From Thermodesulfovibrionales bacterium (lineage in GTDB: Bacteria > Nitrospirota > Thermodesulfovibrionia > Thermodesulfovibrionales > UBA6898), in NCBI GenBank assembly GCA_044450345.1, contig JBIOIY010000069.1:1-13087 (forward strand): a stretch of DNA of 13,087 nt, read 5' to 3'. The notes under the pieces are model-generated. The model was not told the DNA's origin. It did no database searches and worked only from the letters and a program-made list of their open reading frames with translations. Of this stretch, positions 1 to 4,799 are shown in pieces (the stretch's first letter is position 1; every line of letters starts with the position of its first letter). The translations under genes were made by a program, and so were the position numbers.

Positions 1-125
1 GTTGATGAATTTTGTTTAGCCATAAACTAATTCTTAACAGGAGGTTTCTATTTTGAATAGTCTACAAAATCAGTTCTCCCTATGATTTAATGGGGAAATC
101 TAACTTCATGCTTTATTCACATATA

Positions 126-188
126 ACCCATTTAGAGGACACCCATTTAGAGGACACCCATTTAGAGGACACCCATTTAGAGGACACC
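126..188. repeat. Perfect tandem repeat, 4 x 15 bp ACCCATTTAGAGGAC plus partial ACC
   Basis: Copies at 126-140, 141-155, 156-170 and 171-185. The unit equals the IS terminal bases plus most of the right inverted repeat. Confidence 0.97.
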
Positions 189-189
189 T

Positions 190-572
190 GTCAAGGGAAA
201 AAGATTCCCTTCCGAAGTTTTTGACTTCTTCTTTTTTTTGAGCTGCCGATAATCTTTGCCATTGCCGTTTTTTCTTTGAGTTTCGGCTCCAGTCTTCACT
301 GTGCCAGACACCCATCAGGATCGAGGCCACACCCAGAGATCACTCCCCAAAGAGGGCCCTTCCGCTTTATAGCGGACCAGAAAACCTTCGGTTCCGTGCC
401 GGGTCCAATTCGTTTCGTACAATTTCTATGGCTCATAGACCAGTCCGCGATGGCTCCCGGCCCGGGCAGTAAAGATACCAGTAACTCTTATGTTGCTGGA
501 TGAGGCAGTGTTCCAATCAAACTCTTGGTTGCGTCCCAGTCCCGAAACAGGTTAACTGCCTCACCCAGTTTT
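190..572 (-). ncRNA. Candidate seekRNA/bridge RNA region of the IS1111 element
   Basis: Non-coding region downstream of the transposase. A 14-bp stem (568-555 with 509-496) closes only on the minus strand via a G-U pair. Hairpin TCCGCT-TTAT-AGCGGA at 361-376. Segments match the flank (516-526 vs 1680-1690, 10/11) and the IS end (310-315 vs 126-131). Transcript boundaries unknown. Confidence 0.7.
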
Positions 573-1592
573 TTATCCAAACGCTTTCTCAGGGATAAAT
601 GGTACTCCATCCCTCATAATGCAAAATGCCGCCCTTGCCATCTTGTGTGACAGTGCACTGTGCGCAATAGGTGCGTTTGTCCTCCTTCGCTTCCGATCAT
701 AATAAGCCCTCGCTTCAGGGTCGAACCGTCGCGCAAGTTCTCCCGCCTCGGCATATGCCCAAGACAGATACTTGTTGCCGTTTTTCCGATTACTTGATCC
801 TTTCTTCTTCTCATTGCTGAATCTCGCGGCAGGTACCTTCCTGCAGTACGACACATAGTTGCCCACATCTGCAAAGCGCTCAATAGGACCTGTCTCCATC
901 ATGATCGTCAATGCCAGGACCCTTCCGACTCCCGGCATAGTTAGGAGAAGATCATACGGCCGCTTGAGGTTCATCTTTTTTTCTACTGCCACCTCGATTG
1001 CGGTAATCTGTCTTGTAAGAGAGTCAATCGCATCCTTGCTCACCTTTCCGGCAAGGGAGAGATCATCGTTGCCAGCCAGCAGTGGGGTCACCCGATCCTC
1101 TTTCAATGCCTTTAGCTGATTCGTCTTCATCTTTGCACCTATGTTCCTGGCGAGGATGTTCTGAAGGCTTGTGATGAGTGATGTCCTCAGCCTTACGAGA
1201 TGCCCTCTCTTTCTCAGAAGGTCTCGTAGAGGCCTTTGCTCCTTTGGATAAATGTATCCCTCAGGCAATATCTTCAGTCTCAGCATCTCGGCAAGCCAGA
1301 AAGCGTCATCTTCGTCGTCTCCATGCTTGAGTCCAGAATACTGCTGCACTCTGGAGGGATTTGCCAAGTGGACCTGATAGCCTTCCTCCATCATAAGATC
1401 GACCAGCCAGTACCAGTTGTACGTGGACTCCACGACAATCCCCTCAATATCCTTTTTGAATGGCCTGAGTGACTCTGAAATCAGACTTGGATCGTTCCGG
1501 AGTTTCTTCTTCCATAGTCTTTCACCATCCTCATCGATGATCCCCACAAATGTATTGGTTGAATGGAGATCAAATCCTGTGTACAATCCCAT
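573..1592 (-). CDS. IS110-family transposase (DEDD RuvC-like domain plus C-terminal Tnp20 domain)
   Basis: Motifs GFDLH, VVESTYNWYW, GDDEDDA, LLTMPGVG, RFSNEK and GNKYLSWA. Start placed at ATG 1592 because GAGGAGGT lies 5 nt upstream. Confidence 0.96.
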   Translation of the reverse strand: MGLYTGFDLHSTNTFVGIIDEDGERLWKKKLRNDPSLISESLRPFKKDIEGIVVESTYNWYWLVDLMMEEGYQVHLANPSRVQQYSGLKHGDDEDDAFWLAEMLRLKILPEGYIYPKEQRPLRDLLRKRGHLVRLRTSLITSLQNILARNIGAKMKTNQLKALKEDRVTPLLAGNDDLSLAGKVSKDAIDSLTRQITAIEVAVEKKMNLKRPYDLLLTMPGVGRVLALTIMMETGPIERFADVGNYVSYCRKVPAARFSNEKKKGSSNRKNGNKYLSWAYAEAGELARRFDPEARAYYDRKRRRTNAPIAHSALSHKMARAAFCIMRDGVPFIPEKAFG

Positions 1593-1660
1593 AAAGCACC
1601 TCCTCAAAGGTTAAGATTGGCGTCTTAACTCGAGCATACCGCAAATCGATATGCTCGGGG

Positions 1661-1676
1661 AGGTGTCCTCTATATG
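1661..1676. repeat. Left subterminal inverted repeat of the IS1111 element
   Basis: AGGTGTCCTCTATATG is the reverse complement of 174-189 with one mismatch. Confidence 0.9.
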
Positions 1677-1927
1677 ATTATCAGACTCTTCAACAGTTGC
1701 GGCTGGGAAGATCTGTTGGCTATCAGGTGTATTCAAATTCTGGTTGACGCGGGACAATACCAACTTTAGAGAGTAATCAAGAGCAGAGCCGGAGCATTGA
1801 TTCTGAATAGTGGAGGCGGCAAAAATGCATCCAAGAAATCGAAGCGAGTTACGAAATACCCTGGGAGGTAATGGTTATTCAGCCTCGTCGGGGCTACCGG
1901 TAATGTATTTAAGGAAATGGGGCCGCG

Positions 1928-1969
1928 TTGATTCACAGAATTATATATGGCATGATTAATTCATACCAT
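1928..1969 (+). promoter_or_regulatory. Putative sigma70 promoter and autoregulatory operator of the TA operon
   Basis: TTGATT (1928-1933), 17 bp, then CATGAT (1951-1956) with an extended -10 TG. Inverted repeat ATGGCATGA/TCATACCAT (1947-1955/1961-1969, 8/9) overlaps the -10. RBS AGGAGGTG at 1973-1980. Confidence 0.6.
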
Positions 1970-1985
1970 TATAGGAGGTGCTGAG

Positions 1986-2222
1986 ATGGGAACTGCAGTG
2001 AAAAAAACGATATCGCTACCGCTGGAACTGGCGGAAGAAATCGAAATGATAGCGGAGGAAGAAGGCAAGACCCTGAGTGCGGTGGTCCAGGAGGCTTTGA
2101 GAAGTGCAAGGAAGGAAAGGCTTAAGAAGGAGTTCAACCAGATTCAGGGTTACTTGAGCCGCAAGGCAAAAGAAAAAGGCATCCTCACGGAAAAAGACCT
2201 TGAGAGATACCTCAAAAAGTGA
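1986..2222 (+). CDS. Ribbon-helix-helix (CopG-like) antitoxin
   Basis: KKTISLP-ELAEEIE-IA-EEGKTLSAVVQEAL RHH pattern, strong RBS, 4-nt GTGA overlap with the PIN gene. Confidence 0.88.
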   Translation: MGTAVKKTISLPLELAEEIEMIAEEEGKTLSAVVQEALRSARKERLKKEFNQIQGYLSRKAKEKGILTEKDLERYLKK

Positions 2223-2798: not shown

Positions 2799-3953
2799 AT
2801 GAAAAGCAGATTCAGGATAGACAAGACGCATTACGAGATCACGGCAAAGTCGACGATCAGGAAGGCCCTCGCATTTCTGAAGACGACCGACCTGGAACCG
2901 CCCTACCTTCTGATCGACGCCTCTATGGTCAAAAAAAAGGTGCGCTCCATAGGTAAGAACATCAAGAATTCGAGGGTCTTTTACGCGGTCAAGGCAAACC
3001 CGGATATAGAGGTCCTGAAACTGATCGACAGTCTCGGGCTCGGCTTCGAGATCGCCTCCGAGGGGGAGCTGGCGATCCTCACATCGATCGGGGTCAAGCC
3101 GGCGAGGATCATCACAAGCAACCCGATAAAGTCCTTCAGGTTCCTGCGCATGCTTGCGGAATTCAACCTGCCCTATTACGCCTTTGATTCAAAAGACGAG
3201 GTACGCAAGCTGCGGGACTATGTGCCGGGCTGCAACGTCTACGTCAGACTCACGGTCCCGAACGAGGGGTCCGAATGGCCGCTCAGCAAGAAGTTCGCAG
3301 TTGAACTCGATGAAGCGGAGGAACTGCTCCTCTATGCAAAGAAGAAGGGGCTGAACCCCGTCGGCATAACCTTCCACGTCGGCTCACAGTGCACCAATAT
3401 ATACAACTGGAATTCGGCCCTCGACAAGGCAAAGATACTCTGGGACAGGATGGAAGAGAGGGGGATACGTCTTTCGGTACTGAATATCGGCGGGGGCTAT
3501 CCGATACGCTATACGAAGAGTGTCGTGGATATCGCCTCAATTGACAAGAACGTCAACGCCCTCATCTACGAGAAATTTCCGAGAAATATAAAGGTCTTCA
3601 TCGAGCCCGGCAGGGCCGTCGTGGGGGATGCCGGCATCTTCGTATCGAGGGTCGCGGGAAAGGCCCGGCGGGGCGACGATGATTGGCTGTACATTGACGT
3701 AGGGGTGTTCAACGGCCTCATGGAGAGCGTAGGAGGGATAAAGTACAAATATATCGTCGAAGGTTTCAGCCACGTGAAGAAATGGACCCTTGCGGGGCCG
3801 AGCTGCGACAGCTTCGACGTAATCGACAAAGATATCCTTCTGCCGGAGCCGCCGATAGGAGGCAGGGTGTTGATCCTGTCGAGCGGGGCCTATACTATAT
3901 CGTATGCCTCGGAATTCAACGGCTTTTCGATACCAAAAACCATACTCATCTAG
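2799..3953 (+). CDS. PLP-dependent fold-type III ornithine (lysine/ornithine) decarboxylase
   Basis: Motifs FYAVKANP (PLP lysine), GFEIASEGE, FHVGSQ, NIGGG, EPGR, GPSCDSFD and GAYT. 384 aa, directly upstream of speE. Confidence 0.9.
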   Translation: MKSRFRIDKTHYEITAKSTIRKALAFLKTTDLEPPYLLIDASMVKKKVRSIGKNIKNSRVFYAVKANPDIEVLKLIDSLGLGFEIASEGELAILTSIGVKPARIITSNPIKSFRFLRMLAEFNLPYYAFDSKDEVRKLRDYVPGCNVYVRLTVPNEGSEWPLSKKFAVELDEAEELLLYAKKKGLNPVGITFHVGSQCTNIYNWNSALDKAKILWDRMEERGIRLSVLNIGGGYPIRYTKSVVDIASIDKNVNALIYEKFPRNIKVFIEPGRAVVGDAGIFVSRVAGKARRGDDDWLYIDVGVFNGLMESVGGIKYKYIVEGFSHVKKWTLAGPSCDSFDVIDKDILLPEPPIGGRVLILSSGAYTISYASEFNGFSIPKTILI

Positions 3954-3962
3954 GAGGCGCCG

Positions 3963-4799
3963 GTGATAAAGTTTATCGAGAAAGACCCTTATGCACCCAT
4001 CCAGTATTCCTACGAGGTGTCGAAGGTCCTCCACCATAAGAAGAGCAAATTTCAGGACATCCTGGTCTTCGAGAACCCTTTCTTCGGAAAGGTGCTGGTA
4101 CTCGACGGGGTCGTACAGATCACGGAGAAAGACGAATTCTTCTATCACGAGATGCTGGTCCATATCGTCCTGAACTCCCACCCCCACCCGAAAAAGGTCG
4201 TCGTCATCGGCGGGGGTGACGGCGGCACAGTGCGTGAAGTCCTGAAACATAAATCCGTAGAAAAGGTCTTTTTTATCGAGATAGACGAAGACGTCATCAG
4301 CGTATCGAAAAAATTCTTCCCTTCGGTCGCAAGCGGCGTCAAAGACAAACGCGTCGAGATCAAATGCATGGACGGGGCCGAGTTTATCAAGGGGCGGCGT
4401 TCCGATATCGACGCGGTCATCGTAGATTCCACCGATATAGTCGGTTTTGCAAAGAGCCTCTTCACGAGGAATTTTTTCAGGACGATCAATAATTGCCTTA
4501 CCGAGGACGGCATGTTCGTGACGCTTTCCGAGTCGCTGCACTTTCACAAAGACATGGTCGTGGAAGTCCAGAAGACGATGAAATCCTCTTTCCCGGTCGT
4601 CGATCTTTACACTGCCCCGATAGCGACGTACGCGGGGAACTGGTGGTCCTTTTCGGTGGGTTCGAAGAGGCTCGATCCGAGGGAAATAAGACGCAAGGAC
4701 AAGATCAAAACAAAATACTACACCCCCGAGATACACCGGTCCGCGTTCCTGCCGAAGGACATGTACGCCAAACTGCTTGCAGGAAAACTCGGCTGGTAA
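3963..4799 (+). CDS. speE: Polyamine aminopropyltransferase (spermidine synthase)
   Basis: Motifs SKFQDI, GKVLVLDG, DEFFYHEML, IGGGDGG, EID and DSTD. GTG start with AGGAGG RBS overlapping the upstream stop. Confidence 0.95.
   Translation: MIKFIEKDPYAPIQYSYEVSKVLHHKKSKFQDILVFENPFFGKVLVLDGVVQITEKDEFFYHEMLVHIVLNSHPHPKKVVVIGGGDGGTVREVLKHKSVEKVFFIEIDEDVISVSKKFFPSVASGVKDKRVEIKCMDGAEFIKGRRSDIDAVIVDSTDIVGFAKSLFTRNFFRTINNCLTEDGMFVTLSESLHFHKDMVVEVQKTMKSSFPVVDLYTAPIATYAGNWWSFSVGSKRLDPREIRRKDKIKTKYYTPEIHRSAFLPKDMYAKLLAGKLGW

Follow-up and report, generated by a model that had tools for sequence, protein, structure and literature searches.

A predicted target-reading RNA hairpin behind the transposase gene of an ISGsu4-like IS110-family insertion sequence from a Thermodesulfovibrionales bacterium

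The kind of system considered here, a transposase of the IS110 family acting with a guide RNA, was already described in 2024. In the IS1111 elements ISEc11, ISKpn4 and ISPa11 (PMC11187229), a long non-coding region lies downstream of the transposase gene, the inverted repeats are subterminal, and the seekRNA (82-154 nt) holds in a stem-enclosed loop two guides that overlap at the insertion point, the match to the top strand of the target standing 5' of the match to the bottom strand; close relatives show natural retargeting, and the target is of a repeat type. In IS621 of the IS110 group (PMC11208160, PMC13626964), the bridge RNA comes from the left end, ahead of the recombinase gene, and has two internal loops, one for the target and one for the donor, each with two guides. 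Its opposite-strand guides flank the loop in the reverse order, both junctions carry a CT core, the partner DNA is read by handshake guides in the form of dinucleotide extensions, and the circle junction provides a promoter (PMC13626964).

The locus analyzed here shares with the IS1111 elements every one of these features except the size of the RNA, its conserved structured region being ~340 nt long. It further differs from them in a transposase that is nearest to ISGsu4, in a serine motif SN rather than SG, TG or TA, and in a second segment that tracks the right end, the core and two target bases. With the IS621 bridge RNA it has in common the opposite-strand guides around an internal loop, the core dinucleotide at both junctions (in its relatives), the dinucleotide extensions and, as a candidate, the junction promoter. 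On the other hand, its left end measures only 91 nt and the structured region is downstream of the gene, the guide order is reversed, and the core is NG (TG, AG, CG) instead of CT. For the ISGsu4 group itself, the compared portions of the IS110/IS1111 guide-RNA literature contain no account of an RNA.

Positions 127/172-1683 of the window (the whole 13,087-nt stretch under analysis) are occupied, on the minus strand, by an IS110-family insertion sequence with the IS1111-type layout known from PMC11187229 and PMC11208160 (Table 1). Its ends were set by pairwise alignment with a second, 91% identical copy in the same genome (G000:C27; copy 2 below), which places the right end, closing with ...GGTGTCCTCTAAATGGG, at 172. 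This leaves a downstream non-coding region of 401 nt (172-572) versus 91 nt upstream of the gene (1593-1683). The subterminal inverted repeats (12 bp, with terminal extensions of 11 and 6 nt) fall within the format of the IS1111 group (7-17 bp plus extensions), and the relatives carry a short NG core at both junctions without any long target duplication, as is usual for the IS110 family. In the window the core is TG at the left junction and is absent from the right one.

The transposase reading frame is intact and matches both Pfam domains of the family (PF01548, DEDD_Tnp_IS110, 8.2e-18; PF02371, Transposase_20, 6.5e-15), as well as the NCBIfam model NF033542 'IS110 family RNA-guided transposase' (169.4 bits, cut-off 140). 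The conserved serine of the Tnp domain (P-x4-S) is present, with VPAARFSN aligned to TPRRYESG of IS621, so that the serine coincides with the S of the IS621 ESG motif and is followed by N, not G. Judged from this alignment, the catalytic residue is likely the serine of ARFSN (Ser259 by our own count). The nearest annotated relatives belong to the ISGsu4 family (46-49% identity for the best plasmid hits). The source data of PMC11187229 list the ISGsu4 group under IS110 and, in those columns for the IS1111 and IS110 groups that were compared (1-161 of 345), give it identities of ~15-22%. The label 'IS1111' given to this element in the earlier sequence-only reading is therefore grounded in its layout and not in its phylogeny, and we have filed the element in the IS110 family, ISGsu4-like branch, with IS1111-type layout. 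At least four further and more distant IS110-family transposase genes are present in the genome (G000:C33, C42, C51 and the end of C36), with identities of up to 40% or hits to Pfam models only.

An element of the ISGsu4 family on a Paraburkholderia plasmid (L078) has the same layout at only 46% protein identity and in a different phylum. It has a hairpin after the stop codon, a GAUCCUGAUGGG-UG-UC segment and a CTTGAC...GCTAATGGG end, and its 5' guide matches its own right flank with one G-U.

Table 1. Features of the insertion sequence and of its predicted guide RNA, in window coordinates
Feature	Positions	Strand	Remarks
Whole insertion sequence including terminal array	127..1683	-	Ends from alignment with the 91%-identical copy G000:C27 and relatives
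Canonical single-end element	172-1683	-	Same alignment basis
Transposase gene	573..1592	-	339 aa; ATG at 1592, stop TAA 575-573; DEDD RuvC-like and Tnp domains
Left end	1593..1683	-	91 nt; begins TG-ATAATCATATAG; core at 1683-1682
Left subterminal inverted repeat	1661..1672		TAGAGGACACCT on minus strand, 11 nt in from the end; reverse complement of 178-189
Right subterminal inverted repeat	178..189		AGGTGTCCTCTA on minus strand, 6 nt from canonical end 172
Terminal 15 bp, three additional tandem units	127..171	-	TG + TCCTCTAAATGGG
Left target half	1684..1760		End approximate; lies in a low-copy repeat, with uninterrupted copies in C18, C32 and C46
Target-binding hairpin, predicted RNA	496..568	-	14-bp stem, 45-nt loop
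5' guide ('T') UGUUUCGGGAC	539..549	-	Complement of top strand of right target half: core G + TCCCGAAACA
3' guide ('B') AAGAGUU-UG-AU	516..526	-	Left flank sense, core, first 2 nt of left end
Inner-hairpin loop ('mid') GACGCAACC	527..535	-	Third patch differing from copy 2
Rest of structured non-coding-region RNA	225..495	-	Limits approximate; large domain with long-range closing helix
Second programmable segment AUGGG-UG-UC	307..315	-	Donor-loop-like, with handshake-like dinucleotide; A1 columns 279-287
TTGACA, candidate junction-promoter part	189..194	-	18 nt from GATAAT (1682-1677) if the element is circular

The hairpin that the sequence-only reading had described just behind the transposase gene (14 bp with one G-U, enclosing a 45-nt loop) is confirmed by the sequence itself, by folding statistics and by compensatory changes among 25 relatives. 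On the minus strand, CUGGGUGAGGCAGU (568-555) pairs with ACUGCCUCAUCCAG (509-496) around the loop 510-554, the stem starting 4 nt past the stop codon. The 86-nt stretch folds at -32 kcal/mol compared to -19.45 +/- 3.2 for its shuffled versions (z = -3.92), and none of the 200 shuffles was as good. The consensus fold of the non-coding region, derived from an alignment of this region in 25 relatives (A1), has 88 pairs and includes the hairpin stem. Over the whole fold 97.9% of the cells pair, as compared with 34-50% when the partners are slid (25 sequences). In the hairpin stem (helix 1) the paired fraction is 97.4%, and both sides change in 3 of the 11 pairs; for example, columns 18/80 contain 13 A-U, 9 C-G and 2 G-U pairs. 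The long-range helix (helix 4) comprises 20 pairs, two of them with changes on both sides. Overall, the 401-nt downstream region most likely gives rise to a structured RNA. Rfam contained no family matching window positions 1-2200 at E-values up to 1.

A hairpin located so close to the stop codon could also be a mere 3' stabilizer or terminator of the transposase mRNA, in which case its matches to the flanks would be due to chance. Against such a role, the hairpin has no U-tract after it, the promoter/terminator scan returned no terminator-like site, and among the relatives the variable positions are found in the loop while the stem is conserved. The same scan yielded two promoter-like sites versus 1.3 expected, including a weak one (9/12) on the minus strand at 724-696, ~130 nt upstream of the stem. 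Contigs from RNA libraries that overlap the region belong to relatives (X17 covering 267-521 and X18 covering 205-428) and, being assembled, indicate neither strand nor ends nor transcription; no sequencing run, compared in the form of assembled contigs, contained half of the query words.

Within the loop, the sequence-only reading had assigned UAACC (554-550) as the guide for the right target half, a role that falls instead to the adjacent segment UGUUUCGGGAC (549-539). UAACC is ruled out, as it is conserved whatever the flanks, and its CC is paired in the consensus fold with the GG of GAUUGG in 25 out of 25 sequences. A small inner hairpin of the loop pairs CUGG with ACC. Together, these two pairings leave the guides unpaired on opposite sides of an internal loop, one on each strand. 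The 5' guide (549-539) precedes the 3' guide (526-516), the two overlapping at the core, which is the order of the IS1111 seekRNAs.

Evidence for guide function is provided by uninterrupted versions of the target, a low-copy repeat found elsewhere in the genome. In transposase orientation these sites read ...CAACTGTTGAAGAGTC-TG-TCCCGAAACA... (C18), ...TTGAAGAGTT-TG-TCCCGAAAAA... (C32) and ...TTGAAGAGTC-TA-TCCCGAAACA... (C46). The 5' guide is an exact 11/11 complement of G+TCCCGAAACA in C18, with 10 nt matching in C46 and 9 nt in C32; among 20000 shuffled loops, only six attained an 11-nt match to the 42-nt site. In the 3' guide, AAGAGUU (526-520) has the sense of the left flank, UG (519-518) that of the core and AU (517-516) that of the element start. 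AAGAGUU agrees with the window left flank at six of seven positions, the seventh having U opposite G, whereas AAGAGUU-UG fits the C32 site contiguously (9/9). Taken as a whole, AAGAGUUUGAU (526-516) and the left junction AAGAGTCTGAT (1690-1680) agree at 10 of 11 positions, as had been noted in the sequence-only reading along with the U-G mismatch; this left guide is upheld by the C32 site and by the family covariation described below. Since 53 of 5000 shuffled loops also reached 10/11 (either strand, 36-nt junction), the left-junction match alone is only modestly unusual and would be compatible with a stabilizing hairpin matching its flank by chance; the exact 11-nt match to an uninterrupted site is hardly so.

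The same reading had held that the target can be recognized from the window. This is true of the left half; the right flank agrees with the guide at only 2 of 9 positions, and the intended target, of the form ...AAGAGTTTG-TCCCGAAACA..., becomes apparent by reference to the uninterrupted sites. By their guides, the two copies would specify different target types, TG-TCCCGAAACA for the window copy and NG-TCGGTGAA for copy 2.

Two additional segments were considered as guides but not adopted. The loop of the inner hairpin (535-527) matches CGCAAC located 12-17 nt upstream in the window left flank (the C32 site has GACGCAAC), but as an extra left-flank guide it was not significant in a family-wide test (251 of 3000 permutations equal to or above the observed value). 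The segment GAUUAUC (~247-253) could be viewed as directed at the left end GATAATC; its sequence is variable whereas that end does not change, and it is part of the long-range helix, with a compensatory pair at columns 108/345. Inspection of alignment A1 by eye showed no guide antisense to the left element end.

To assess the guides across the family, we used relatives with 75-95% protein identity, at 11 loci from genome contigs and 50 loci from metagenome contigs, including Nitrospirota and Thermodesulfovibrionales MAGs. Guides, cores and flanks were taken only where the landmarks could be located, and L051, a duplicate of the L050 locus, was left out. For the 5' guide against right-flank positions 2-10 (25 elements), 157 of 225 positions match, compared to 107.6 +/- 6.6 after permutation (0/20000). 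Ten elements have a contiguous match of 7-8 nt and seven of at most 4 nt, the latter including the window (2/9, contiguous run 0), L021 and L040; right-flank positions past the seventh are often mismatched. For the 3' guide against the last seven bases of the left flank (27 elements), the count is 108 of 189 versus 75.7 +/- 5.4 (0/20000). This is the covariation with flanks across relatives that the sequence-only reading had named as a check on its idea. Eleven elements score at least 5/7, and 11 of the 27 at most 3/7, copy 2 (3/7) being one of them; all carriers of the common guide AACGGUU score at most 3/7 on the left flank, except for L031 (4/7). The guide and the start of the left end share the same first core base, which may be T, A or C, in 26 of 27 elements. 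The flanks are host DNA and differ among loci; the elements themselves are kin and not independent, and therefore the permutation figures overstate the significance. Examples of retargeting are TCCTTCAC in L030, TCCGGTTA in L044, TAGGT in L034/L035, TTTCG in L038/L060, and TCCC..AA in the window and L068. With both guides and the core co-varying family-wide, we give hardly any credence to the hairpin as a simple mRNA stabilizer or terminator.

In two relatives (L002 and L056), TG stands at the left junction and CG at the right one. The first 'core' base apparently moves with the downstream DNA, so that the shared core may be only G.

The comparison of the two copies in this genome points in the same direction on a smaller scale. 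They differ in 9 of 50 loop columns versus 29 of 390 columns elsewhere (p = 0.027), the differences in the loop being clustered in three patches, and the 5' guide of copy 2 is complementary to copy 2's own right flank GTCGGTGAA. The left halves of the uninterrupted paralogues of the copy-2 target (e.g. C39 and C54) do not fit the copy-2 3' guide.

Because of the guide complementarity, the covariation of guides and flanks, and the conserved fold, we consider it very probable that the hairpin is the target-reading loop of an IS110-family guide RNA (of the seekRNA/bridge-RNA type) that would direct a DEDD/serine recombinase. The guide-loop idea of the sequence-only reading is thereby borne out by three findings beyond its own, the exact 11-nt complement in the genome, the covariation in 25-27 relatives and the compensatory changes in the stem. 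In the proposed mechanism, the RNA would be made, perhaps from a promoter at the circle junction, and would bind the enzyme and direct recombination. The 5' loop strand UGUUUCGGGAC (549-539) would pair with the right target half on its top strand, and the 3' loop strand AAGAGUU-UG-AU (526-516) with the bottom strand, from the left target half across the core to the second base of the element. Both guides would in this way bring the recombinase to ...AAGAGT(C/T)-TG-TCCCGAAACA..., and AUGGG-UG-UC (315-307) would read the right end of the element together with the core and target bases 1-2.

An alternative is that, as in IS200/IS605, it is the element's own DNA in single-stranded form, and not an RNA, in which the very same sequences act as guides. 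The covariation of guides and flanks would be identical for RNA and for same-strand DNA, and the RNA-library contigs of relatives show no transcription. On the other hand, RNA guides have been demonstrated biochemically for this enzyme family (PMC11187229, PMC11208160), the transposase exceeds the cut-off of the RNA-guided model of NCBIfam, and the G-U pairs at many helix positions (11 of 25 sequences at columns 20/78) suit RNA. A DNA guide is, in our estimate, very improbable.

The second programmable segment, AUGGG-UG-UC, has the sense of the right end, followed by the core and by nucleotides 1 and 2 of the right target half. It carries the same core base as the element in 32 of 33 cases, and the dinucleotide at its end (TC, TA, TT or AC) is identical to right-flank positions 1-2 in 28 of 30; the window was omitted from the latter count because its right flank is not cognate. 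By analogy, the segment resembles a donor-loop guide with the handshake dinucleotide of IS621 (PMC13626964). The target loop is complete, whereas on the donor side AUGGG-NG-NN alone was found, that is, one strand of a donor-type loop.

TTGACA near the right end and GATAAT at the left end would be brought together by circularization and represent a candidate circle-junction promoter, a function suggested by their spacing and by the conservation of TTGAC and GATAAT in relatives. Extra units of the terminal array (see below) would push the two motifs apart.

The right flank of the window copy is anomalous. Positions 124-128, which the sequence-only reading had taken as the right junction and thus as a target half, do not represent it. 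The element end is followed by three extra copies of its terminal 15 bp, and the array by non-cognate DNA (TTATATG...) with no TG core (GGG|TTATATG). Window positions 1-126 are unique in the genome, and the sequencing contigs compared included none bridging the right junction. This flank could have arisen by deletion, by rearrangement between copies, through insertion at a half-matched site or as an artefact of the contig end. A 12-nt sequence of positions 1-126, ATATGTGAATAA, recurs 22 nt past the right end of a related element (L068).

This anomaly bears on whether the guide is still in use. If the cognate right flank has been lost, no excision would be possible, and the guide, even if genuine, would be idle in an immobile relic. 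The non-cognate, coreless flank agrees with this view, as does the report that the donor flanks of ISEc11 had to match the seekRNA (PMC11187229). Conversely, the transposase frame and the RNA fold are intact, excision of IS621 is reported to need the donor arms only (10.64898/2026.08.31.748434), and, as the window begins 126 nt past the array, the flank may be an assembly artefact of the contig end. We regard the relic status of this copy as possible, though on balance unlikely.

The 15-bp terminal arrays are not confined to the window. They occur in 8 of 16 TG-core elements with a GGTGT(C/T)C inverted repeat and in none of the 16 others (Fisher p = 0.0024), a grouping made by hand that includes L034 and concerns kin that are not independent. 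The arrays contain from two to at least eight units (window 127-186, L028, L029, L035, L037, L043, L044, L047). L028 and L037 both have seven units in spite of different guides and flanks, so that arrays may travel with the element. A pattern of one unit plus core (16 nt) gave nine matches in 54 genomes of the family. The six outside the window array are all solo units situated between target-like halves without an element body (G000:C10:62286-62301 and G000:C36:1161-1176, and L079, L081, L082 and L084 from three relatives), for example ...GTGTT-TG-TCCTCTAAATGGG-TG-TCGGTGTAA... Such units may be footprints left by excision, or they may result from recombination at a pseudo-core within the inverted repeat. 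Tandem non-coding repeats beside IS110 transposases, whose unit boundaries likewise keep a match to one donor end, have been explained by half-match recombination (10.64898/2026.08.14.744561), an explanation that fits the 15-bp arrays. Here, unlike there, the unit is made up of just the core and the terminal 13 bp of the element, and solo units also occur at target-like sites.

A broader and rather doubtful generalization is that the ISGsu4-like branch employs a guide RNA of ~340 nt with two target-reading programmable sites (the two-guide loop and the segment for the right end, core and two target bases), and that a near-copy of the second of these sites within the right inverted repeat (..AGG-TG-TC.. 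vs ..GGG-TG-TC..) drives the recombinase to make the 15-bp arrays and leaves the solo footprints. If true, the solo footprints would constitute a readable record of past insertions and excisions at places where the element is now gone.

The known working of these systems is unchanged by our analysis, which adds a well-resolved natural example of RNA-guided recombinases, with two 91%-identical copies carrying different guides in one genome and uninterrupted sites that permit the targets to be read directly. According to the ~30 relatives, the programmable positions comprise ~7-10 nt for the right side, ~5-7 nt for the left side, the base of the core and two extensions of 2 nt each, which should be useful in annotating such elements and in choosing compact recombinases from the little-studied ISGsu4-like branch.

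A few observations concern the surroundings of these elements. At the end of contig C32 (L004 ~1560-1722), another related element has its diverged right end inserted at CG-TCCCGCGTCAACC. In the window (~1745-1760) this site is undisturbed and lies 60-75 nt from the element, and hence the repeat has two different target sites. At 1986-2686 of the window, ~300 nt away from the element, a small ORF (78 aa, without Pfam matches) runs into the beginning of a 155-aa ORF with a PIN_3 domain, the two probably being a toxin-antitoxin pair. The rest of the window is of housekeeping character, encoding an ornithine/arginine-type decarboxylase, spermidine synthase, Lgt, an RNB-domain exonuclease, and Usp and BON-domain proteins. 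Finally, in one relative (L019, ~3546-4697) the guide loop is split by a 1.15-kb insertion encoding a 359-aa transposase with DDE_3 and helix-turn-helix domains, presumably IS630-like; such a nested insertion would disable the guide.
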